Below are positions 874-16,657 of a stretch of DNA of 24,000 nucleotides, piece after piece (within the stretch, counting starts at the first letter, position 1; each line of letters opens with the position of its first letter). Source of the DNA: an uncultured Clostridia bacterium (lineage in GTDB: Bacteria > Bacillota > Clostridia > Saccharofermentanales > Saccharofermentanaceae); contig CAJOLL010000006.1 of NCBI GenBank assembly GCA_905235455.1, forward strand, positions 31,835 to 55,834, in the 5' to 3' direction. Below the pieces are notes generated by a model that was not told the origin of the DNA, searched no databases, and was given only the letters and a program-made list of their open reading frames with translations. Made by a program: the position numbers and the translations under genes.

Positions 874-898
874 GAAATGCCCTATTTTAGGGCATTTC
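874..898 (-). terminator. displaced native guaA terminator (hairpin, possibly bidirectional)
   Basis: Perfect 10-bp stem GAAATGCCCT (874..883) / AGGGCATTTC (889..898) with a 5-nt loop. On the minus strand it is followed by AGTTTTC, and on the plus strand by a T6 run (905..910). It sits 14 nt beyond the duplicated guaA stop codon at 912..924, where the guaA terminator would lie in an empty site. Confidence 0.6.
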
Positions 899-911
899 CA
901 GCGTTTTTTCA

Positions 912-924
912 TTATTCAAGCTCG
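912..924. repeat. att core copy (attR side): TTATTCAAGCTCG
   Basis: Exact 13-bp direct repeat of 16645..16657, which encodes the last guaA codons (...IELE) plus TAA on the minus strand. Identity stops on both sides of the 13-mer. Confidence 0.75.
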
Positions 925-1024: not shown

Positions 1025-1045
1025 ATGTACCCAGAATGTACCCAA
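1025..1045 (+). repeat. tandem arm-type repeats ATGTACCCA x2 (11-bp phasing), attR arm
   Basis: TGTACCCAGAATGTACCCAA. The same tandem, TGTACCCAAAATGTACCCAA, occurs in the same orientation at 16567..16586 near the other end. Candidate binding sites for the integrase's AP2-like N-terminal domain. Confidence 0.55.
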
Positions 1046-1049
1046 TGAA

Positions 1050-2750
1050 TCAATCAACACTATCTTTTATTTGCATCATTTTTATCAACATCATTACCAA
1101 TCCATCTATGAACCCAGCTTTCTGTTCAATCAATATTTCGTTAATATCGTTTTTCTCCGTAGTAGCTACACAATTTGCTATGATGTGCTTCACGCGTTTT
1201 TCTGTACTCTCGCTCCACTCTGAACCTTGAGATAAAAACACATTTCTCATTCTATCGGACCACTTGGCATTTCCTTTAAACTCTTTGCACTTAAGATTAA
1301 TATTATACTCATCTTCCAGAGAATCAGCATAAACATCTGCTCTAATACAGTCTTCAAATTCAGATTCTGTAGATCCATTACAAATGGTCATCTTCACCTG
1401 AGAATCCTTTACGAGACCAATCTTTCGTGCTTTATCTATAGCTTCCTTTCCAGCTTTATCATTATCTAGTAATACGACAAAGCTACATAAGCTAGCCTTC
1501 AAATCCATTGCATCATGCGTTAAGTTCCCCACACCTGCCAACGGCTTAATAACTAATTGATTTGATAACAACACACTCCTCAATGCACTGCTTTTCATCG
1601 AAAGAATTCTTTCCAACGCAATCTTATCATTTTCACCCTCGACCAAAAGAACAAACCTGGAATGTTGAAGATTGTCGGATGGGATAACTCCGAGTATATT
1701 CCGTATTTCTTCAATACTTTTAGCAGGTCTAGCAGTACCAGAATCCACAATAATATTTGAGTTCAGTTTATTTTGCCGAACAAACAGAGGATTGTGTGTA
1801 GTTATAATTATTTGGTTGTGCTCAGATAATGAATTTATAACATCAATCAAATTGTGTATTGCGCCAGAATGAAGATGTGATTCCGGTTCTTCGATAGCAA
1901 TTATCGATGCTTTTTTTGTACTAATCCTATCCTTAAGAACGGCTAGAGTAACTAGACTTTTAATCCCATCACCTTTATTTGTAATACTAGTCAGCTCCCC
2001 ATCATCAATTAATACATCAAAGCCGTTATACAAGCGCCAATTCCTTGAGTTTTCACGAAGTTTACGGATACATATCTTTTTTAGATTAGGCAGAAAAACG
2101 TGTAATGGACCAAACAATTGTGCAGAAATATTATCCAGTATTTCTTGCTCTAGACTATCTACTTTGTCCATAGCCTCTACATATTCCTGATTATTCTGCA
2201 ACGATCGCAATTCTCCTGATATTGCCCATCTTAACGCGTCCAAAGCCATCTCTTCAGTTCGAACCGCTTGAATGTAATTGAAAGAAATATTCGTCGAGAT
2301 GAAGTGAGTAACCTGTTTTGAATTCCTGTTATAAGACGATGAACCTTTTTTAGGAACTTCAATTTTGGCCTTGTTATCACGTCCAAACTTAACAGTTATT
2401 GGAATATCTTCATTTCCTCTAATTTTGGTTAAGTCATGAAACTCAGTTAATTCATCTCCTTCCAATCTAAAATGCAGTTTAAAAATCGACTCAAGACCAT
2501 TCTTCCTATTCTGCAGAGATATTGGGAAATCACGATTCCAATTATATAAATACTCGCCCTCCAAATCTCTAAAATGATTATAATCCTGTGAATGCTGTAA
2601 AATAGCGCGCATGGCAATATTTAAAGCGGTAAGAAGATTGGATTTTCCTTCATTGTTTTTACCGACAAGAACTGTCATATCTTGAAGATTAATCTTGTGG
2701 GCTTTCGTTATACTTCTAAAGTTTGTTACTGAAAATTCCACTAATTTCAT
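1050..2750 (-). CDS. OLD-family nuclease (ABC/AAA_15-type ATPase plus C-terminal Toprim), stand-alone class-1-like
   Basis: The ORF-track start at 2756 is a GTG. The ATG two codons in (2750) lies 7 nt after GGAGGA and is preferred. ATPase motifs: Walker A GKNNEGKS, signature-like NKGDGIKS, Walker B IIAIEEPESHLH, TTHNP. Toprim motifs: LLVEGENDK (Glu) and VVLLDNDKAG (DxD). No UvrD-like partner is adjacent. Confidence 0.85.
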   Translation of the reverse strand: MKLVEFSVTNFRSITKAHKINLQDMTVLVGKNNEGKSNLLTALNIAMRAILQHSQDYNHFRDLEGEYLYNWNRDFPISLQNRKNGLESIFKLHFRLEGDELTEFHDLTKIRGNEDIPITVKFGRDNKAKIEVPKKGSSSYNRNSKQVTHFISTNISFNYIQAVRTEEMALDALRWAISGELRSLQNNQEYVEAMDKVDSLEQEILDNISAQLFGPLHVFLPNLKKICIRKLRENSRNWRLYNGFDVLIDDGELTSITNKGDGIKSLVTLAVLKDRISTKKASIIAIEEPESHLHSGAIHNLIDVINSLSEHNQIIITTHNPLFVRQNKLNSNIIVDSGTARPAKSIEEIRNILGVIPSDNLQHSRFVLLVEGENDKIALERILSMKSSALRSVLLSNQLVIKPLAGVGNLTHDAMDLKASLCSFVVLLDNDKAGKEAIDKARKIGLVKDSQVKMTICNGSTESEFEDCIRADVYADSLEDEYNINLKCKEFKGNAKWSDRMRNVFLSQGSEWSESTEKRVKHIIANCVATTEKNDINEILIEQKAGFIDGLVMMLIKMMQIKDSVD

Positions 2751-2763
2751 ATTCACATCCTCC

Positions 2764-5700
2764 TCATGCTACTCTCGCATTATCATTAATACCATCTATA
2801 ACCTTCCGGATTCCCATCCAGACGTTTAGATCCGTAAATATCTCTACCACGCTTCCCTGATCCGTGAATGGTGACTCCTGAAGCACAGACAAATCTTTCA
2901 TCATTCCGTTGTGAACAATATACTCAACAATCTGGTTTACAAAGTATATCTGCCGGCTGTCGAGATCATTGCTCTCAAGATACTCGGAGAAGGCTGCCTT
3001 TGCTGCATTCATATCAAGACCAACGATCTCCCGAACAAGTTCTCCCAACGGCTTAGTACCATATTCCTGCTCATACTCTTCCTTCGTTCCAAGATCCGAC
3101 CAAAGCACCTGTTCCAAAACCTCTATATCATCATGAGACAATGGTATATTTGACTTCAGTTTCTTTATAACTTCATTATCTTGATGCTCCCGGATATAAT
3201 ATTCAGCCTTCGCTTTATAATTCTTCAGATCATCATTATCAAGCTCCGATTCATTCCAGGAAACATCAAGAATATCATCATCGAAGTTTGTATCATAACG
3301 AAGATGCTTCTTTGGAATATACTTCATAAGATCACGAAGATTCTCTCTGATCTCTTCGAACTCGATCACACCACAATCCGTAATATAGTCCGTGTGGAGG
3401 ATCTTATCTATCAGCTCGGACTGTACTTTTATCTCCGGTATATTGGCCACACTTGCAATTCCACTAACACGTTTATACAGATCACTTCGTGCTCTGCCAT
3501 ATTTCTTACCTGCAAGATACGCAAGTTCAATACCATACATAAGTGCATCGAACCGCGCAGCACTTGCCTCGTCATCATTAGGCAATATCAACGGCGCTAA
3601 TTCTTCGCGAACAAGCAATGTATCTGCATATGTCAGCGTTTGATAATTAGCTTCTGCAGAATACAGATCAACATACTTCAGATGCTGTCTGACTGCAAAG
3701 TTCTCACGAGGTAGTTCCTGAACCTTTCCGGTCATCGCTTCCACCAATGCCTTACGGTAAGCTATAAATCTCTCTTCCTGGTAAGCAAGATCCTGCAGCT
3801 TATATGTGATCTCGAACTGCAGATTAAAGATAGCTCCCTGCAGCGCGATCATGTTTGCGGTTGGCTTGCCCTTGCTCATGCGGAAGAACTCGAAGTTCCC
3901 ACAAAAATCAAAAATATAAAACTTACTCTTATCTTCGCCATCAATTAGTCCCGGACACAATCTGGTTCCACGGCCTATCATCTGCCAGAACTTGGCGTAA
4001 CTCATTACCTTCTTGAAGAATACAAGATTCAAAACTTCCGGCACATCAATACCAGTATCCATCATATCAACGGAAATCGCTATCTGCGGGAGTTTGTTCG
4101 GATCAGAGAACTCATCTATCAATGTCTGTGCATAATTTATTCGATTATCAATAACCTGGGCAAAGCCATTTAGGTGCGGATAATCCTTGTTGAAGATCTC
4201 AAGTATCTTCTCCGCATGATCATGATTCTTGGCAAAGATAATCGTCTTACCAAGCTTCTGACCATAGTCGATCTTTATACCGTCTTTCATCACAGTATGA
4301 AGAACCTGACGAATCGTATCCTCATTGAAGATCCATGAATTCAAAGCAGACGAACTAATCGCTTCGGGCAACTCCCCGTCTTCCATTTCAAACGTATCTT
4401 CGTAGATAGCCTTGTCTTCTTCTGAAAGCTCATCATAAACAATGCCTTGTTCAATAAACTTCAACTTTGTCTCTACCGAAAGGAAGTCGACAAGATATCC
4501 GTCATTGACAGCTTGAGCAAGCTCATATCCGTATGTTGGAACACCCTGCTCCAGATCGAAAATCTCATACGTATTCTTATCAATATCATCCTTCGGCGTA
4601 GCAGTAAGACCAACAAGCGGCGCATCGAAGTAGGTAAAGATATCTCTGTATTTGTTATATATTGATCTATGCGCCTCGTCACATATTACAAGGTCGAAGT
4701 GTCCGCTGGTGAAAAGCTTCTGATTCTCAACCTTAACAGTGTCGATACAATTCATCATCGTCTGATATGTCGAGAAGACGCAGTGCGCATTGTAGTTATC
4801 TTTCTCTTCGCAGAGGTTTGTTACAGACAGCGATGAATAGTTATTTACAAAAGCACGCTTCGCCTGCGTAACAAGCGATGTTCTATCTGCCAGGAAAAGG
4901 ATATTCTTTACCCAACCTGCATCGAGAAGCACATGGCAAAGTTCAATTACCGTTCTAGTCTTACCGGATCCTGTTGCCATAACAAGGAGAGCCTTCCGGC
5001 GATTCTTCTTATCGAAACTATCACATACCGCCTTAATGGCCGCTTCCTGATAATATCTTCCGGCGATATTCTTATCTACATTAACATGAGCAAGAGATGT
5101 CCTCATCCTTCTGAGATTGAACATCTTCTCCAGATCGGCTTTGGAATAGATACATGCTACCTTTCTCTCAGGGTACTGCCCGTCTATGATCCTTGTATCA
5201 AATCCATTTGTAAGGAATATGCATGGTCTTCTTTTATACTGCTTCTCAAGAATATCTGCATAAAGTTTCGCCTGCTGGCGACCCTTAGATACATCAACAC
5301 AGGTTCTCTTGGCCTCGATAACGGCGAGAGGTTTGTGTGCATTATCAAAAAGAACATAATCAGCAAAACCCACTTCTGATTTATTTGGCATACCCGGGAG
5401 TTCAAGCTCATTGATCCAATCTGATCCCTCTTTCCATCCGGCATCGATAAGCATTGCATCAATATATATCTTACGAGTCTTATACTCGGAAAGATCTAAC
5501 GGCTTCGGCACATACGTCTCAAGCTGCTCTTCTCGACGAGAGGTCAACTCTTTCCGCAAAGCAGAATTTTCAGCAATAAGTTCTTTTATTTCAACATCCG
5601 GAAACTCAGTTTCAAACTTTGCATCTTCATCTTTTACAAGTAACGATTTATCAAAGGGATGTTCTTCATAATGATCAGCATAACAGTAGCACACGAAGTC

Positions 5701-6054
5701 AAAGAAAATCTGAAGATTCTCAAGACAAAGTATCGCTTGATCCTCAGTAATCTTCTTTCCGGAATGCGCAGCATTATTACCCATCTTACGAATGAAGTCC
5801 ATTCGCTTCATGAGATCATCATCAATAATGTCGCGAAACTCTTCCGTACTCATGAGGCTTATCAAGTTGTCCTGGTACGGCATCTGCAGTGAACTATCTA
5901 CGGAATACATCCACTTGATCGCAAACTCCATTGCTCTCCGGCAGTTGATAATACAGGAAGTAGGATCAATATACAGAATCTTCTCAGCCGCAATTGCCAC
6001 ATCAGAGAATGTGTTAAATTTCGGCTCATTTTTCAAATAATCGAAGTTGGTCAT
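2764..6054 (-). CDS. hsdR: Type I restriction enzyme R subunit (HsdR)
   Basis: 1096 aa. DUF4145-like N-terminus (AIAAEKILYIDPTSCIINCRRAMEFAIKWMY). PD-(D/E)xK nuclease motif (FADYVLFD...AVIEAKR). SF2 motifs: I MATGSGKT, II VICDEAH, III GLTATP, VI QMIGRGTR. C-terminal tail resembling the EcoEI R C-terminal domain. GGGAGG lies 7 nt before the ATG. Confidence 0.95.
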   Translation of the reverse strand: MTNFDYLKNEPKFNTFSDVAIAAEKILYIDPTSCIINCRRAMEFAIKWMYSVDSSLQMPYQDNLISLMSTEEFRDIIDDDLMKRMDFIRKMGNNAAHSGKKITEDQAILCLENLQIFFDFVCYCYADHYEEHPFDKSLLVKDEDAKFETEFPDVEIKELIAENSALRKELTSRREEQLETYVPKPLDLSEYKTRKIYIDAMLIDAGWKEGSDWINELELPGMPNKSEVGFADYVLFDNAHKPLAVIEAKRTCVDVSKGRQQAKLYADILEKQYKRRPCIFLTNGFDTRIIDGQYPERKVACIYSKADLEKMFNLRRMRTSLAHVNVDKNIAGRYYQEAAIKAVCDSFDKKNRRKALLVMATGSGKTRTVIELCHVLLDAGWVKNILFLADRTSLVTQAKRAFVNNYSSLSVTNLCEEKDNYNAHCVFSTYQTMMNCIDTVKVENQKLFTSGHFDLVICDEAHRSIYNKYRDIFTYFDAPLVGLTATPKDDIDKNTYEIFDLEQGVPTYGYELAQAVNDGYLVDFLSVETKLKFIEQGIVYDELSEEDKAIYEDTFEMEDGELPEAISSSALNSWIFNEDTIRQVLHTVMKDGIKIDYGQKLGKTIIFAKNHDHAEKILEIFNKDYPHLNGFAQVIDNRINYAQTLIDEFSDPNKLPQIAISVDMMDTGIDVPEVLNLVFFKKVMSYAKFWQMIGRGTRLCPGLIDGEDKSKFYIFDFCGNFEFFRMSKGKPTANMIALQGAIFNLQFEITYKLQDLAYQEERFIAYRKALVEAMTGKVQELPRENFAVRQHLKYVDLYSAEANYQTLTYADTLLVREELAPLILPNDDEASAARFDALMYGIELAYLAGKKYGRARSDLYKRVSGIASVANIPEIKVQSELIDKILHTDYITDCGVIEFEEIRENLRDLMKYIPKKHLRYDTNFDDDILDVSWNESELDNDDLKNYKAKAEYYIREHQDNEVIKKLKSNIPLSHDDIEVLEQVLWSDLGTKEEYEQEYGTKPLGELVREIVGLDMNAAKAAFSEYLESNDLDSRQIYFVNQIVEYIVHNGMMKDLSVLQESPFTDQGSVVEIFTDLNVWMGIRKVIDGINDNARVA

Positions 6055-6080: not shown

Positions 6081-6605
6081 TCATTTGAATAATTCCGGTT
6101 CTTCGTTATATAGCTCCAATAACCAAGGTTGCGGAACATAGGTCAATATCATTGCGTTGTTCCACCCTAGTGTAAACACCTGTTCAGGCATGTGTAAAAA
6201 CAAGTTATTAACCAAATAAATTGTATCTCCAGATGTCTTATCTAACGATATCGTTTTATCCTCGCTCCGCAACACCTGCAAAACTATTGCTTTTTGTCTA
6301 GGACTTAATGTCAGAAGCTTCTTCTTCAAGTTTTCTCGAATACGTTTATTTCTTCGTCTTGTAGAAATATCTGAAATAACAGAAAAGATGACTATGGTAG
6401 CTATCAATGCGATGCTCAGCAAAAAGATGATCCCTATAATTCGATTCCATAAGACTGGAAGTTCATTCAGATTCATCTTAGCCAATACCGACTCAGGAAG
6501 AAAAATAAGCAAGCCCGACAGTATCGCAACTGCTGCCAAGGCAGGCGTTATCTTCTTAAAATTATCAAAAGTCTTTTCGACTAAATTGTCAAAAGAAACA
6601 CTCAT
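6081..6605 (-). CDS. small 2-TM membrane protein, SieB (superinfection exclusion B)-like, embedded between hsdS and hsdR
   Basis: The track ORF is 6081..6626, but the internal ATG at 6605 (MSVSFDN...) is preceded by GGGAGGAGAG and the ATG at 6626 has no SD. Two hydrophobic helices (ITPALAAVAILSGLLIFLP and IIGIIFLLSIALIATIVIFSVI) are followed by the basic stretch TRRRNKRIRENLKKK and a roughly 90-aa soluble C-terminal domain. The LIFLPESVLAKMNL motif and the overall layout match my memory of the SieB family (PF14163). Not searched. Confidence 0.5.
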   Translation of the reverse strand: MSVSFDNLVEKTFDNFKKITPALAAVAILSGLLIFLPESVLAKMNLNELPVLWNRIIGIIFLLSIALIATIVIFSVISDISTRRRNKRIRENLKKKLLTLSPRQKAIVLQVLRSEDKTISLDKTSGDTIYLVNNLFLHMPEQVFTLGWNNAMILTYVPQPWLLELYNEEPELFK

Positions 6606-6618
6606 TTTTCTCTCCTCC

Positions 6619-7809
6619 CTATCCAAAATACTCTTGCATCAAACTATCAAAAAGTAATTGAGTTTTTTCTAATGCTTTCTGCACCTCAACTTTTGATTTG
6701 TCGACTTGTTCACAAAATGAGTCAAACTCTATCTGAAGGTTCATAGGCGGCACAAAAGCCTCCAAACTATTAATCATATTTGTATACAGGCCCGCCTGCG
6801 CAGCTGCGTGCGAACAATGATCAATGTCATTCTGAATCGATTCGCTTCTCAATACGTTTATAAGGAAATTACTTGTAACCATTTCCTTATTAGGTTTTAT
6901 CAAAGCGACACTACGGGCCATACTGAATTCACCCATCGTTTCTGGAACTAATGTGCATTTTCCAATTGTTGCCCCTACGCATACAAGGAGCAAATCATCC
7001 TTTTCTGGATTACATCTTTTATATATCTTCTCATGGATCTCTTGAGGAACAAAAGATGTTTCAGATAAATTGATTTCACCATCTTTTGTAATATTACGTG
7101 CCATGAAATAAAGATATCCTTCACCTTCATCAACTCTTGGAACTGTGCCGTGCTCTCCATCAGTAATTTTTGTACTGACATCCTTGAACGTACATTTCTT
7201 CCACCCATGCTCATTTGTTTTTATATCACCAAAGAGCTCGACAAATCGGGCTTTGATAAGTTCATCCAGCATCTCAAGTTCATGTTGTCTTTTTTTAATA
7301 ATCCCTTCCAGTTTAGAAATTCGTTCAATTATCTCTTTTTGCTGATCCAATGCCGGTAGAGATATTTCCATCTTATTGGCATTCTGAATTGTAAAGGTTC
7401 CTACCGTTGTTCCGCTGGAATTTTTGGATATAAAATCCTTTACTTCCTTTGAATCAAATGCCTTTACAAGATATTCCGGCAAGATCCTTTCTGGTGCTTT
7501 TTGTCTAAACCATAGGATATTTCCATCTTTGAAGTAAAACTTGTCTTCTGGTTTTACAATATAACAAACTCCCAACGTGCCAACGCCAGTTACCATTACG
7601 TCACCTGGCTGAGGTTTACCATATTTCTCTGTGTACTCTTCGTAAAGTTCTTCATCTATGAATAGCTCATTATCGACATAACCATCTTCCGATAATCGCG
7701 CAATTTCCCTCGCCCTATAAAAAGGTATTCCCTCTTCTCTCCATTCAGATTGAAAAACTCTTTTACTAGAGCCTATATCATAAAGATTGCTTAGTTTTTC
7801 TTTTGCCAT
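6619..7809 (-). CDS. hsdS: Type I R-M specificity subunit (HsdS)
   Basis: 396 aa. Two variable target-recognition halves are separated by conserved helical spacers: a central LDQQKEIIERISKLEGIIKKRQHELEMLDELIKARFVELFG and a C-terminal QKALEKTQLLFDSLMQEYF. Located within the hsdM...hsdR block. Confidence 0.9.
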   Translation of the reverse strand: MAKEKLSNLYDIGSSKRVFQSEWREEGIPFYRAREIARLSEDGYVDNELFIDEELYEEYTEKYGKPQPGDVMVTGVGTLGVCYIVKPEDKFYFKDGNILWFRQKAPERILPEYLVKAFDSKEVKDFISKNSSGTTVGTFTIQNANKMEISLPALDQQKEIIERISKLEGIIKKRQHELEMLDELIKARFVELFGDIKTNEHGWKKCTFKDVSTKITDGEHGTVPRVDEGEGYLYFMARNITKDGEINLSETSFVPQEIHEKIYKRCNPEKDDLLLVCVGATIGKCTLVPETMGEFSMARSVALIKPNKEMVTSNFLINVLRSESIQNDIDHCSHAAAQAGLYTNMINSLEAFVPPMNLQIEFDSFCEQVDKSKVEVQKALEKTQLLFDSLMQEYFG

Positions 7810-7825
7810 ATCATCCCTACAAATC

Positions 7826-8860
7826 TCAATTTATTGATTCATCATCATTCAACATCCATATCCTCTTAAGAGGAATGTCTGCCTGCATATCTGGACTTAA
7901 CTTTTCGTAATTAGCAAAGAGTTCGTTAATTACATCATTTGAATCCCATAATCTTATTCTGAAGAACTGATTTCCACGCTCTTTTTCTACGCTCGACTTA
8001 AAACCGCTCCAAGAAACAAGCAATCCATATTCCGCTCCGACTTTATTCATAACGCCACCCAACTGATCAAGTATAGAGCGTTCTATTGGAGCGTCTTGCG
8101 TCTTAACCTGCACACATATTTTCGGGGAGCCAAAACCCATCGTACCACCGGAAGCAAGTAGATCTTTTCCGCCATCAGCCCCCTGTTTGCTGTGATAAAC
8201 GGTAAAACCCTTTGCTGCTAACAGCTCACAAATTAATTCCTCCATTCTGTATCCCTTAAATTTATGAAGGATATACTTAGAGATTGCATCTCTAGCAGCT
8301 AATTCAATATCTGTTGTCGTTTCAAAGTCACTATCAGTACCGTCAGGGAAAACCGCATCAGCTGCAGTTGAAACTTTCCAATTATTCTTTTCCATTGCCT
8401 TAAGGCGCTTCTCTGCATCGTTTCTGGTAATCTGACACACAGTCATGAATGCACCAAATGAATACAAAATATCCTGATCGAAATTACTCCTCGGAATATC
8501 AGTCGCAAACCATTTAACCTCAATATAATGCTTATACGGACTTACTGCTTTTTCATCATATGTATAAGATCCGATAACTTTAGCAAAATGTATAGTACTC
8601 GATCTTTTGCTCGGCAAAACGATCCAGTCCTCCTCCTGGATTTTATTGGCAAATGGATATATTTGAGATGCCCAATTCTTAATCGTATTCGGCTTTTCAG
8701 ACGAATATATTTCGTTTAACTTGGATAAAAGCTTCTCTCTGTTCTTATACTTAGTTAAATCAATATCAAGCTCTCCCCATGTAAGATAGATTTTCTTGTC
8801 ATTGAGGAATTTATCTTCATACTGCCCTTTACTTCCTGCACGCACTAACCAGATACTCAT
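7826..8860 (-). CDS. Mrr-family (Type IV-like) restriction endonuclease with a non-canonical N-terminal domain
   Basis: The C-terminal half has an Mrr_cat-type PD-(D/E)xK core (GADGGKDLLAS...PKICVQVKTQ...LLVSWSGF). The N-terminal roughly 160 aa (MSIWLVRAGSKGQYEDKFL...YIEVKWF...FGAFMTVCQI) is not the winged-helix N-terminus I remember from E. coli Mrr. GGGAG lies 9 nt before the ATG. Confidence 0.75.
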   Translation of the reverse strand: MSIWLVRAGSKGQYEDKFLNDKKIYLTWGELDIDLTKYKNREKLLSKLNEIYSSEKPNTIKNWASQIYPFANKIQEEDWIVLPSKRSSTIHFAKVIGSYTYDEKAVSPYKHYIEVKWFATDIPRSNFDQDILYSFGAFMTVCQITRNDAEKRLKAMEKNNWKVSTAADAVFPDGTDSDFETTTDIELAARDAISKYILHKFKGYRMEELICELLAAKGFTVYHSKQGADGGKDLLASGGTMGFGSPKICVQVKTQDAPIERSILDQLGGVMNKVGAEYGLLVSWSGFKSSVEKERGNQFFRIRLWDSNDVINELFANYEKLSPDMQADIPLKRIWMLNDDESIN

Positions 8861-8876
8861 ACATTTTGACTCCCTT

Positions 8877-10373
8877 CTATTTTAATAGCTTTTCAAGTTC
8901 ATCCATCTCTACCGCTATCTGTTTTTCGATATCTCTGATACTCGCCATGATCTCCGATGTCGGCGGATATACTACAGGAACATACTCGACTTCCTTATAC
9001 TTATTAATCGAGAGATCATAGTCATTATCTGCAATTTCCTTCTTTGATACCATGAACGATTTTTCTGTGCGCTTTCTGTCCTTCTCGGCATCAAGATTCT
9101 TGAATCGGTTTATGATATCAGGAATATCATTGTCCTTGATCTCTGCGCGCTTATCATCAAGGCTGAATCCGTCGGCAGTCATATCGTAGAACCATACATT
9201 ATCCGTTCCGCCGTGGCCTGTCTTAGTGAAGATAAGTATACCGGTAGACACTCCGGCATACGGCTTAAATACACCGGACGGCATAGAGATAACGGCTTCT
9301 AGCCTTTGGTTCTCAATAATCTCTTTTCGTATAGCCTTATGAGCATTGGATGATCCAAACAGCACTCCGTCCGGTACGATACATGCACATCTTCCGCCGA
9401 CTTTAAGCATTCTTACAAACAGAGCCAGGAAAAGTAATTCAGTCTTCTTTGTCTTGCACATTTTCTGCAGGTCCGTTGACACCGTATCAGCATCGAGATT
9501 CCCCTTAAATGGAGGATTTGCAAGGATAAGCGAATACATGTCTTTATCCGGATTCTGATCAGATAGACTGTCTCTGTATTCTATGAAAGGATTATCTACA
9601 CCGTGCGTCATCATGTTCATGGCACCGATACGAAGCATAGTTCTGTCCATATCGTATCCGTGGAACATATCGTTCATGAAGTGATTTCTGTTTTGTTTAT
9701 CGAGAAGAACTTCTTTCTTATACTTTTCTCTAAGATAGTCGCCACTCGTGACAAGGAATCCGGATGTTCCGCATGCCGGGTCACAGATAGAATCTGTCGG
9801 TTTCGGATCCATCATCTCGACCATCATTCGTATGATGTGTCGTGGCGTTCTAAACTGACCATTTACACCTGACTGTGAGATCTTGGAAAGAAGATATTCA
9901 TATACGTCACCACGTATATCCGTCTGATGAAGTTCCTCCATCATGGAGTATATCTCATCCATAGCATCTACGATCTTGGAGAGCATCAATGGTGTATTTA
10001 CCTTGAAAATAGCATCATCCATGTACTTGCTATATGCAGAATTCTTATCTCCGTGAAGATTCTTTATAAACGGGAATACCCATTCCTGCACAACAGAATA
10101 CATGCGCTGTGCCGGAAAATCGTGGAACGTCGACCATTTGAGTTGATTCCCGTCGACCTTACGATCTCCAATCTCAACTTCATCTGCAAAGATACTCTTG
10201 TAGGGAAGTCCAAGCATTGCTGCTTCCTTTGCACGAAGATTATCTGTATCATCGAGATCCTTAATGAACATTAGATATGTCATCTGTTCAACGACATCAA
10301 GAGGATTGGTGATTCCGCCATTCCAGAATATCTCCCACAAACTATCGATCTTATTACCCAGTTCTCCGGTCAT
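8877..10373 (-). CDS. hsdM: Type I R-M N6-adenine DNA methyltransferase subunit (HsdM)
   Basis: 498 aa. HsdM_N-like N-terminus, AdoMet motif DPACGTSGFL, catalytic NPPF (LILANPPFKG). AGGAG lies 8 nt before the ATG. Confidence 0.95.
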   Translation of the reverse strand: MTGELGNKIDSLWEIFWNGGITNPLDVVEQMTYLMFIKDLDDTDNLRAKEAAMLGLPYKSIFADEVEIGDRKVDGNQLKWSTFHDFPAQRMYSVVQEWVFPFIKNLHGDKNSAYSKYMDDAIFKVNTPLMLSKIVDAMDEIYSMMEELHQTDIRGDVYEYLLSKISQSGVNGQFRTPRHIIRMMVEMMDPKPTDSICDPACGTSGFLVTSGDYLREKYKKEVLLDKQNRNHFMNDMFHGYDMDRTMLRIGAMNMMTHGVDNPFIEYRDSLSDQNPDKDMYSLILANPPFKGNLDADTVSTDLQKMCKTKKTELLFLALFVRMLKVGGRCACIVPDGVLFGSSNAHKAIRKEIIENQRLEAVISMPSGVFKPYAGVSTGILIFTKTGHGGTDNVWFYDMTADGFSLDDKRAEIKDNDIPDIINRFKNLDAEKDRKRTEKSFMVSKKEIADNDYDLSINKYKEVEYVPVVYPPTSEIMASIRDIEKQIAVEMDELEKLLK

Positions 10374-10385
10374 AATCGAACTCCT

Positions 10386-11444
10386 TTACTCGTTATCTCT
10401 GTTCCAAACATACTTTGTATATCTTCCGCCACCGATCTTTATGATCTTCTCCGCTGCCAACAGGTCTGACAACGTTCTTTCAACGGTTATGCGGCTGATA
10501 TCCGGACACTTCTCCATAATCTGTGATTTTGTTATCTCGCCGTATGTGCTCTTAATGAGCTCTGCGACACGCTCAGGCTTAGACAGGCCACTCTCGATCA
10601 ACGTCTGAACCCTGTCTGAGAAATCACGATATGCCGCAACTACTACACCCAGCATATACTGAACAAAAGGAGCGTAATTGTTATTTCCTTCATGCCAGTC
10701 GATCGAGCTTTCTTGCAGACACTCGTAGTATGAATCCTTGGTCTTCTCTATGAGATGCTCAATACTTATGTACTTTCCGACTATGTATCCGGCTCTGTAT
10801 AACAAGAGTAAAGTTAGGAGACGACTCATCCTTCCGTTACCATCGTTAAACGGGTGTATACACAAAAAATCGAGAATGAACATAGGTATTAAAAGAAGCG
10901 GATCTATCGTCCCTGCTCCCATCGCCTTTGCAAACTCGTCGCAAAGAAGTTCTACCGCTTCCGGAGTCTCCCATGCAGAAACCGGCCTGAAGCGGACAAA
11001 CTTATTACCCTGAGCATCCTCTTCTTCAATGATATTATCCGTTGGCTTATATTTCCCACCGAAATCATGGCCCTCGAACTTATATAAATCTCTATGAAGT
11101 TGCAGGATCATATTGGGCCTTATCGGTATATGATCGTGACTCTCATGAATTGTATTAAGTACATCTCGATAACCGGCAATCTCCCTTTCACTTCTCGTCC
11201 TTGGAGTTGTCTTATCCTTTACTATCGCCTTCAAACGGGCATCCGAAGTATAAATACCTTCTATCTTGTTTGACGCCTCAGTACTCTGTATCTTTGCAAT
11301 CTCAACAAGCTGCGTCAACACATCCGCCTTGGCTTCAATAAAAAGCGACTGCTCACCCTTATACTCATGTATCTGTGAAAGCAGTGCCACAATTTCCGGT
11401 GTCAGTAGCTTTTGCCATTTGTTACTGTAGTCAAATGATCTCAT
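10386..11444 (-). CDS. fic: Fic-family protein (probable AMP-transferase), class II type with N-terminal inhibitory motif and C-terminal wHTH
   Basis: Canonical Fic motif HPFNDGNGRMSRLL. An inhibitory (S/T)xxxE(G/N) motif, SNKIEG, lies near residue 60. The C-terminal region (ITKSQIMEKCPDISRITVERTLSDLL) looks like a winged helix. It is the first gene of the operon. Confidence 0.9.
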   Translation of the reverse strand: MRSFDYSNKWQKLLTPEIVALLSQIHEYKGEQSLFIEAKADVLTQLVEIAKIQSTEASNKIEGIYTSDARLKAIVKDKTTPRTRSEREIAGYRDVLNTIHESHDHIPIRPNMILQLHRDLYKFEGHDFGGKYKPTDNIIEEEDAQGNKFVRFRPVSAWETPEAVELLCDEFAKAMGAGTIDPLLLIPMFILDFLCIHPFNDGNGRMSRLLTLLLLYRAGYIVGKYISIEHLIEKTKDSYYECLQESSIDWHEGNNNYAPFVQYMLGVVVAAYRDFSDRVQTLIESGLSKPERVAELIKSTYGEITKSQIMEKCPDISRITVERTLSDLLAAEKIIKIGGGRYTKYVWNRDNE

Positions 11445-15816: not shown

Positions 15817-15873
15817 TTGTTTTCACCTCTTTCCTCTAGATTTGTATCATGCGTATCATTTGATACGCTTGTG

Positions 15874-15902
15874 ATAATAGCGTATCTTTTGATACGTGTC
15901 AA
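15874..15902 (-). promoter_or_regulatory. xis-int promoter
   Basis: The reverse strand reads TTGACA (15902..15897), 17 nt, TATTAT (15879..15874). The 17-nt spacer is exactly operator O2, and O1 lies just downstream of the predicted start. Confidence 0.6.
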
Positions 15903-15911
15903 TAGATAATC

Positions 15912-15940
15912 TTGAAAAATCGTATCTTTTGGTATAGAAT
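15912..15940 (+). promoter_or_regulatory. xre regulator promoter
   Basis: TTGAAA (15912..15917), 17 nt, TAGAAT (15935..15940). Operator O3 overlaps the spacer and the -10. AAGGAG lies 8 nt before the ATG at 15976. Confidence 0.5.
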
Positions 15941-15975
15941 GGCATCAATTGATACGTTTACAAGGAGAATAGCCT

Positions 15976-16566: not shown

Positions 16567-16586
16567 TGTACCCAAAATGTACCCAA
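16567..16586 (+). repeat. tandem arm-type repeats TGTACCCA x2 (11-bp phasing), attL arm
   Basis: TGTACCCAAAATGTACCCAA, about 60 nt inside the element from the core at 16645. Same orientation and phasing as 1025..1045. Confidence 0.55.
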
Positions 16587-16644: not shown

Positions 16645-16657
16645 TTATTCAAGCTCG
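16645..16657. repeat. att core copy (attL side, within the guaA 3' end): TTATTCAAGCTCG
   Basis: Exact direct repeat of 912..924. Contains the guaA stop codon (complement of 16645..16647). Confidence 0.75.

Follow-up and report, generated by a model that had tools for sequence, protein, structure and literature searches.

A Class 1-type OLD nuclease gene appended to a Type I restriction-modification operon on a guaA-inserted mobilizable element

Introduction

Nucleases of the OLD family couple an ABC ATPase to a Toprim domain, and several of those encoded by a single gene are known to defend alone, as reported for Vc OLD (PMC12392090), YbjD (PMC13261556) and P2 Old (PMC12445682; 10.64898/2026.07.10.737580). 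Here we analyze a gene of this family, hereafter old, found in a 24,000-nucleotide stretch of DNA from an uncultured Clostridia bacterium (assembly GCA_905235455.1, contig CAJOLL010000006.1, positions 31,835 to 55,834; "the window"), where it lies immediately behind hsdR as the last gene of a Type I restriction-modification (R-M) operon carried by a mobile element inserted at the 3' end of guaA. The described single-gene enzymes differ in their activities. Vc OLD acts alone, nicking DNA and blocking phage replication (PMC12392090), and YbjD displays ATP-modulated toxicity (PMC13261556). P2 Old is triggered by aberrant DNA, such as phage-origin single-stranded DNA hairpins and the defects found in RecBCD-deficient cells, and cuts the tRNA anticodon stem (PMC12445682; 10.64898/2026.07.10.737580). 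Of the OLD classes, Class 1 is the one least well understood: testing has covered only P2 Old, Vc OLD and YbjD.

Fused ABC-Toprim proteins in R-M-like operons and genes embedded in Type I operons are, like the single-gene OLD class itself, already known. The ABC and Toprim pair RloAB resides within a Type I R-M locus, and PARIS is a sensor of anti-restriction proteins (PMC10802264). TgvAB are defence genes of the Type I locus of VPI-2 (PMC11411939), and the HEC-01 to HEC-09 genes are embedded in Hma systems, among them HEC-04, a validated fused ABC-ATPase/Toprim defence protein (10.1101/2024.01.29.577857; Payne et al. 2024). The original prediction for this locus, made from the sequence alone, had proposed that the OLD protein may guard the adjacent Type I enzyme as a fused PARIS-like sensor-effector or may use HsdR as its motor in place of GajB, and that either case would constitute a new functional pairing. 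Such a pairing would not be new in kind, given that R-M-linked ABC-ATPase nucleases are well established in PrrC-EcoprrI, RloAB and HEC-04 in Hma (PMC10802264; 10.1101/2024.01.29.577857).

Results

The open reading frame (ORF) at 1050..2756 on the minus strand is a real gene, in which the GTG at 2756 is only the mechanical start of the ORF; the likely start codon is the ATG at 2750, yielding a protein of 566 amino acids (aa) that is equal in length to its closest relatives. The old gene so defined (1050..2750, minus strand) encodes an ABC ATPase (residues 1 to ~340) fused to a Toprim nuclease with a C-terminal helical region (~365-560). Its ATPase half presents, again on the minus strand, a Walker A motif GKNNEGKS (residues 30-37; 2640..2663), an ABC signature-like motif NKGDGIKS (residues 258-265; 1956..1979), a Walker B/D-loop segment IIAIEEPESHLH (residues 283-294; 1869..1904) and an H-loop TTHNP (residues 317-321; 1788..1802). 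The Toprim half contributes E371 and D375 in the glutamate motif LLVEGENDK (residues 368-376; 1623..1649), D429 and D431 in the DxD motif LLDNDKAG (residues 427-434; 1449..1472) and, further on, a conserved acidic EFEDC cluster (residues 464-468; 1347..1361; E464, E466 and D467) that is likely to provide an additional metal ligand set. These assignments combine motif positions with an alignment of 63 homologues (54-80% identity) in which Walker A, Walker B and the other key ATPase and Toprim residues, E371/D375 and D429/D431 included, are invariant. Both defining features of the OLD family, N-terminal ABC ATPase motifs and, at the C terminus, a Toprim domain with conserved Glu and DxD, are hence found in this protein, in agreement with the original prediction.

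Pfam searches match the N-terminal half to AAA_15 (2e-27) and AAA_21 (2e-20) and give weak Toprim_2/Toprim_4 matches at residues 369-458; for the isolated C-terminal domain, Toprim_2 scores 23.1 bits against a cut-off of 22.1. [quoted passage not shown] A model of the C-terminal 227 residues (pLDDT 90) is also closest to TsOLD, then to the C-terminal regions of XccOLD and BpOLD, and its scores are similarly weak against the Class 2 regions 6njw and 6nk8 (TM 0.43-0.48) and against the Class 1 region 6p74. Homology to P2 Old can be detected but is remote (BLASTP, 24% identity over 417 aa; hhalign, probability 98 over 154 aligned columns), and that to YbjD is barely detectable. In PADLOC, the Old model matches at 1.4e-25 in two separate stretches of the protein and several GajA models match at ~1e-20.

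No UvrD-like helicase gene and no reverse transcriptase gene is present among the window genes, and Rfam and tRNA scans of the window returned nothing. The isolated C-terminal domain has no Pfam or PADLOC match to DUF4435, AriB or RloB at E<=1, AriB is absent among the 50 best fold matches of the C-terminal model, and an OLD family profile search reached the solved AriA structure at no better than E=0.057. The top PADLOC match, "AriA", was rejected as evidence for PARIS, since its models (373 and 304 positions long) coincide in length and range with Pfam AAA_15 and AAA_21 and are therefore generic. Scores for the NCBIfam models retron_eff_Eco8 (50.8 bits against a cut-off of 250) and MAD3, a MADS ATPase (47.2 bits against 420), do not support membership in either family. 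Because no UvrD/GajB, retron or AriB-type feature is present, the protein is a Class 1 (single-gene) nuclease by the context-based definition of that class (PMC10568477, PMC12392090). The stand-alone character first ascribed to this fused protein thus holds, whereas the further suggestion of a fused PARIS-like sensor-effector does not fit a C-terminal domain whose nearest relatives are TsOLD, XccOLD and BpOLD.

Comparison with the described systems sets the window OLD closest to the Class 1 enzymes (P2 Old, Vc OLD, TsOLD and YbjD/OldB), with which it shares the absence of a helicase, reverse transcriptase or conserved partner and a location on mobile elements or islands. Even TsOLD, the best structural match for both the full-length protein and the C-terminal domain, remains distant in sequence. 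Moreover, Class 1 genes have been described as isolated from other defence genes (PMC10568477), a descriptive trait rather than a formal criterion, whereas members of the window subfamily are usually appended to an operon and often lie in defence loci. P2 Old occurs in phage, but no real homologue of the window OLD was found in IMG/VR contigs or in 50,697 phage genomes, and a P2-like, prophage-borne picture was accordingly rejected for this subfamily.

GajA of Gabija (Class 2) has the same two-domain architecture and comparable Foldseek scores; nonetheless, no GajB/UvrD-like gene adjoins old here or its homologues at any of the ~150 related loci examined, where no adjacent reverse transcriptase gene was found either, and scanning the large genes downstream with Pfam likewise revealed no UvrD. 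Class 3 enzymes are retron effectors, and the window holds neither a reverse transcriptase gene nor a non-coding RNA matched by Rfam. PARIS, RloAB and AbiL follow the same ABC ATPase and Toprim logic, but as split pairs, whereas the window OLD is fused. PrrC-EcoprrI and RloC, the classic guard-of-restriction paradigm, resemble it in fusing an ABC-type ATPase to a nuclease in or next to a Type I R-M system; the nuclease of PrrC and RloC is an anticodon-nuclease domain, different from the Toprim domain of the window OLD. PrrC is also almost exclusively embedded in Type I R-M systems (10.1101/2024.01.29.577857), and the window subfamily mostly is not. The TgvAB and HEC genes offer a further likeness: they are autonomous defence genes that lie inside Type I or Hma operons or are appended to them, and the window operon likewise carries Mrr-cat/PDC-S02 and SieB-like inserts. 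Here, however, old is appended behind the last operon gene rather than placed between hsd genes. The 25 best PADLOC matches of the window OLD (the weakest at 6.5e-14) do not include HEC-04, which indicates that the latter belongs to a different ABC-Toprim lineage.

The coupling of old to the operon is tight. Read on the minus strand, the hsdR gene ends in GTA GCA TGA (stop codon at 2766-2764) and is followed by a 13-nt spacer (2751..2763) in which a Shine-Dalgarno sequence, GGAGGA (2763-2758), directly abuts the stop codon and TGTGAAT (7 nt) leads to the ATG (2750) and AAA of old, confirming this arrangement as originally described. A consensus scan found no promoter or terminator between hsdR and old, and this result and the spacing make it very probable that the two genes are co-transcribed. 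Their composition differs: GC content follows a gradient from 52.5% in guaA through ~45% in the element backbone and 41.8% in hsdR to 35.6% in old, and GC at third codon positions is 44% in hsdR and 31% in old. Since both values are lower than those of hsdR, to which old is compositionally foreign, old appears to have joined the operon separately.

Close relatives of the window OLD persist without an adjacent intact hsdR. Three of them lie in other settings altogether: a capsule locus in which a HepT/MNT pair follows (P0006; OLD 75% identical), a site beside Schlafen-like and SocA genes (P0005; 76%) and a polysaccharide locus (P0007; 70%). A further group documents the loss of hsdR by degrees. 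In L079, whose OLD is 77% identical to that of the window, an intact hsdR tail lies 11 nt upstream; in L070, with an OLD 94% identical to that of L079, the same tail has decayed and bears two in-frame stops (L070:244-466); and in L065 (OLD 91%) hsdR is reduced to its last ~11 codons (L065:~9940-10000). The old gene is intact throughout this comparison, with a ratio of nonsynonymous to synonymous substitution rates (dN/dS) of 0.04-0.08 at dS ~0.7, that is, under strong purifying selection. The hsdR scars and substitution pattern show an old gene that was maintained after loss of the adjacent hsdR, having been carried away from it or having outlived it.

Conversely, the same HsdR is found with other genes behind it. 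At 90% identity the HsdR cluster comprises 532 members and the OLD cluster 8, a ~65-fold difference, and DNA homology to the window proceeds at 80-83% identity through hsdR and ends at the hsdR stop codon. Beyond that point, and 11-14 nt past the stop, the same HsdR is followed by a 113-aa gene and an nSTAND3 NTPase (L159-L161), by a 1236-aa nSTAND protein (L167) or by a 926-aa PHP-SMC_N/AAA_21 protein (L164-L166); in L162-L163 it is followed by an AEP-TOTE protein at a gap of ~160 nt. The position after the hsdR stop is a swappable cargo slot. Two further slots are evident in the same operon (loci L159-L168). Between hsdM and hsdS, the Mrr-cat/PDC-S02 gene of the window is replaced elsewhere by one for an AbiJ_NTD4 protein, and between hsdS and hsdR the SieB-like membrane protein gene of the window is replaced by NmeDI_C plus a 172-aa gene, by Bro-N plus a 377-aa gene, or by nothing. 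The Fic-hsdM-hsdS-hsdR operon on guaA-inserted elements is thus a scaffold with three precise slots that exchange unrelated defence genes. The 926-aa protein that occupies the slot of OLD (L164:8303-11083, L166:5201-7981) has a weak PHP domain match and an SMC_N/AAA_21 ABC ATPase; it may join a different nuclease-type domain to an ABC ATPase and is a possible candidate defence gene.

The window OLD belongs to a large and length-uniform subfamily, with 2,564 matches at E<=1e-5 in a database clustered at 90% identity; at 50% identity, the matches with E<=1e-30 make up 549 clusters. Its members come from Firmicutes, Alphaproteobacteria, Acinetobacter, Pseudomonas, Fibrobacter, Veillonella, Sphaerochaeta and E. 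coli. We surveyed the neighbourhoods of its members at 58 loci from species-level genomes and 80 from metagenomes, as well as on several contigs from close relatives (loci are cited here by L or P number), calling ORFs in each locus and marking Type I genes with phmmer and Pfam. Dereplication at 90% identity left 92 OLD clusters, of which 44 were informative, by a criterion that favours positives because short contigs were counted only if they showed a Type I gene. Among these 44, hsdR is directly upstream and co-oriented in eight, old is directly upstream of hsdR-hsdM-hsdS in one and another Type I gene is adjacent in two. A Type I-like gene lies elsewhere within the flanks in nine, an upper bound, given that some matches are other superfamily 2 (SF2) enzymes and that L009 and L105 were scored without a Pfam scan; two phmmer "HsdR" matches near OLD proved to be a PLD-ResIII-DUF3427 protein (L096) and a generic ResIII helicase (L026) and were rejected. 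The remaining 24 have no Type I gene nearby, a share that would be larger if short contigs were counted. A Type I gene is thus adjacent in 11 of the 44 informative clusters, and the conservative figure, a lower bound, is 11 of all 92.

Linkage to hsdR is nevertheless recurrent, so that the absence of enrichment next to hsdR that would have counted against the original prediction was not observed. In the OLD tree the hsdR-linked proteins are spread over three or more separate clades, the linked HsdRs fall into two families (EcoEI_R_C type and EcoR124_C type), and the tight hsdR-old arrangement of the window is also seen in L010, L018, L028, L030, L063, L079 and L109. No family is commoner than HsdR among the upstream neighbours that are tight and co-oriented (7/47), which also comprise a Type III Res, two DpnII endonucleases, an HsdM, an HsdS and a C5 methylase, among others. 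Across the subfamily, 58 of 81 clusters have a co-oriented gene upstream, within 100 nt in 36 of 81, while a downstream gap of <=100 nt occurs in only 14 of 83. As a rule, old thus closes a gene series and is attached to any of a variety of upstream genes, among them guaA, valS, acnB, AbiEii, a CBASS gene, Fic or an integrase. Defence neighbours of the homologues comprise R-M, AbiE, CBASS, SoFic-like Fic, KAP NTPase and Schlafen-like genes. Clustering of ~150 loci revealed no universal neighbour, and an apparently conserved upstream partner of ~280-310 aa, hinted at by several loci, was discarded on finding unrelated proteins in its place (AbiEii, DpnII, Sa_NUDIX and others).

Several individual loci are of interest in their own right. 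In L020 (970-4272; also in L083 and L084) the old homologue is flanked by genes for a DpnII endonuclease and an N6/N4 methylase, which it overlaps or almost touches, and is thus nested inside a Type II R-M system. Homologues follow a Type III Res gene in L117 and L149 and a type IIG-like methylase/S pair in L014. An element from the human gut, recovered from many samples (L129-L138, L152, L156), has the order AbiEi-AbiEii-old-(small ORF)-hsdR-hsdM-hsdS, with a 1-nt gap between old and AbiEii, and is the only case in which old precedes a Type I operon. The E. coli homologue (46% identical; annotated as "ATP-dependent nuclease") occurs in only 6 of 5426 complete genomes; in L075 and L076 it resides beside insertion sequence (IS) elements in an island with yee-type genes (yeeS, a YeeU-family antitoxin), 5-7 kb from a Type I hsdM-hsdS locus, and L075 also carries darTG. 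In three contigs binned as "uncultured Campylobacter sp." (L016, L017 and L087), a homologue 56% identical to the window OLD begins 19-21 nt after guaA; these proteins nest among Firmicutes in the OLD tree, which indicates either misbinning or recent transfer.

The window element, of the integrative mobilizable kind and ~15.7 kb long, has the guaA 3' end as its insertion site. Its distal att core (912..924) is a 13-bp copy of the guaA 3' end, TTATTCAAGCTCG, whose partner at 16645-16657 overlaps the guaA stop codon. Just inside each end lies a 20-nt arm-type repeat, TGTACCCAGAATGTACCCAA (1026..1045; also written TGTACCCARAATGTACCCAA), with a partner at 16567-16586 that differs by one base. Chance would be enough to produce a repeated 13-mer in 24 kb, and the boundary accordingly rests on the arm repeats combined with the location of this 13-mer at the stop codon of guaA. 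With its stop at 1050, old is the last gene of the element, 125 nt from the distal end. The only other ORF in this interval encodes 68 aa on the opposite strand (781-987), straddles the att copy and a terminator hairpin and is probably spurious, so that the earlier statement that nothing separates old from the element end is essentially right. The hairpin (874..898), just outside the element, is the first terminator-like structure downstream of old and is probably the original guaA terminator.

Upstream of old, the co-oriented block reads Fic/SoFic (10386-11444), hsdM (8877-10373), Mrr-cat/PDC-S02 (7826-8860), hsdS (6619-7809), a SieB-like gene (6081-6626) and hsdR (2764..6054), all on the minus strand and assigned by profile matches, with old as the final gene. 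HsdR is an EcoAI/EcoEI-type restriction subunit of 1096 aa in which an N-terminal DUF4145 domain (residues 23-114) precedes the usual nuclease-helicase body. Beyond the block are a weak candidate for a MobV-like relaxase, a RadA-like ATPase, a tyrosine integrase, a small ORF called Xis-like on size and position alone, an XRE repressor and the chromosomal guaA. An operator-like motif, TGCGTATCATTTGATACG, is present in three to four copies in the xis/int-xre intergenic region (15850-15959) and in one further copy at 974-994, between the old stop and the att core, where a role as a repressor or recombination-directionality site is possible. The same guaA site is used by a related element (L001/L007; integrase match E=1e-90), which has an old homologue at its guaA-proximal end. 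Just outside the window element, an ORF of 181 aa (108-653) with no Pfam, NCBIfam or PADLOC match is conserved beside the same site in L066 and L067.

Discussion

Taken together, these data make it probable that the window OLD is an autonomous Class 1-type defence nuclease that is carried at the end of a Type I R-M operon within an element inserted at guaA and acts independently of HsdR. This view draws on the intact catalytic motifs, the absence of a partner gene, the mobility of old as a single-gene cassette and the purifying selection acting on it. Having its own Shine-Dalgarno sequence and no evident promoter, old would most likely be expressed by read-through from the hsd operon. By analogy with characterised OLD proteins, the ABC-ATPase half would serve as sensor and regulator, with oligomerisation probably proceeding through the helical insert at residues ~166-219, and a two-metal Toprim site composed of E371/D375, D429/D431 and E464/E466/D467 would be licensed by an infection cue, for instance a phage protein or phage DNA that is aberrant or replicating. 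Once licensed, the Toprim domain would cleave nucleic acid, by either nicking DNA (as Vc OLD) or cutting tRNA (as P2 Old), and the outcome would be protection of the abortive-infection type, an extra layer beside the Type I enzyme and not dependent on it.

Several considerations weigh against this interpretation. We infer the defensive role, trigger and substrate of the subfamily by analogy, and the co-transcription of old with hsdR is deduced from spacing and the consensus scan alone. Restriction genes are over-represented directly upstream of old (hsdR, Type III res, DpnII and the type IIG-like methylase/S pair), an excess that could reflect a functional link ignored by a hitchhiking model, and it is possible that a Type I system elsewhere in the genome acts in trans for the unlinked homologues. 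The most direct form of such a link, in which HsdR replaces GajB as a motor within a physical OLD-HsdR complex, is hardly tenable. The 13-nt gap with a Shine-Dalgarno sequence at the hsdR stop, repeated in seven other loci, is what such a partnership would have in its favour, but the absence of an adjacent intact hsdR from most homologues, including relatives 70-94% identical that remain under purifying selection, the hsdR scars, the variable slot and the habit of old of being appended to other genes all argue against a dedicated OLD-HsdR partnership. The linked HsdRs also come from two families, the window HsdR belongs to a cluster far larger than that of its OLD and pairs with other cargo, and homologues directly follow guaA, valS, acnB, AbiEii, CBASS and Fic genes as well.

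A guard of restriction would need no binding to HsdR: the OLD protein would sense anti-restriction proteins (Ocr, ArdA or Stp-like) or failed restriction and would kill or arrest the cell, as a general backup to R-M systems. Independent and repeated placement behind restriction genes, with HsdRs of two families in at least three clades, a Type III res (L117), DpnII (L020, L084) and a IIG-like pair (L014), is consistent with this possibility, as is the rank of HsdR as commonest upstream family, and there are precedents in PARIS, triggered by Ocr, and in RloAB, the ABC and Toprim pair inside a C. jejuni Type I locus (PMC10802264), as well as in PrrC, triggered by the R-M inhibitor Stp (10.1101/2024.01.29.577857). 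We nonetheless regard it as unlikely, as more than half of the informative clusters have no Type I gene nearby, the slot behind this hsdR also houses unrelated cargo, no AriA- or AriB-specific similarity was found and, R-M being the most abundant type of defence gene, adjacency may only mirror defence-island structure. A broader proposal, in which the subfamily constitutes a second-line effector coupled to restriction generally, with a preference for the 3' end of restriction genes (Type I of two families, Type III, DpnII), and triggered by anti-restriction proteins, restriction-made DNA ends or aberrant DNA, seems to us quite improbable; activation of P2 OLD by DNA structures, possibly double-stranded DNA ends, has recently been proposed (10.64898/2026.07.10.737580). 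Were this broader proposal true, R-M cleavage and OLD abortive infection would form a two-step circuit without a physical OLD-HsdR complex. Still more doubtful is a role outside defence, as a DNA-repair or housekeeping ATPase-nuclease or as an addiction or stabilisation module of the mobile element. The archaeal Cran1 is an OLD-family protein with a non-defence role (PMC12796447), several homologues adjoin the housekeeping genes valS, acnB and guaA, and in several loci the gene lies at the very edge of a mobile element. Against this stand a patchy, mobile distribution, illustrated by the scarce E. coli homologue and its genomic island, neighbours that are overwhelmingly defence genes, and interchangeability with STAND and ABC-ATPase cargo in a single slot.

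With an autonomous defence nuclease as the preferred interpretation, a looser, guard-like synergy with restriction is possible, and the concept already has precedents in PrrC, RloAB, PARIS and the embedded defence genes. The repeated placement of old behind restriction genes is a testable hint of synergy between R-M and OLD, even if the evidence does not separate such synergy from hitchhiking in defence islands. The subfamily is large, spans several phyla and has no characterised member, which makes it a reasonable candidate for testing, and the E. coli homologue of L075/L076 offers a convenient experimental model. The more useful result is architectural: the three-slot scaffold fits the notion of "guilt by embedding" and is a source of candidate defence genes, such as the PHP-ABC ATPase and the STAND NTPases.

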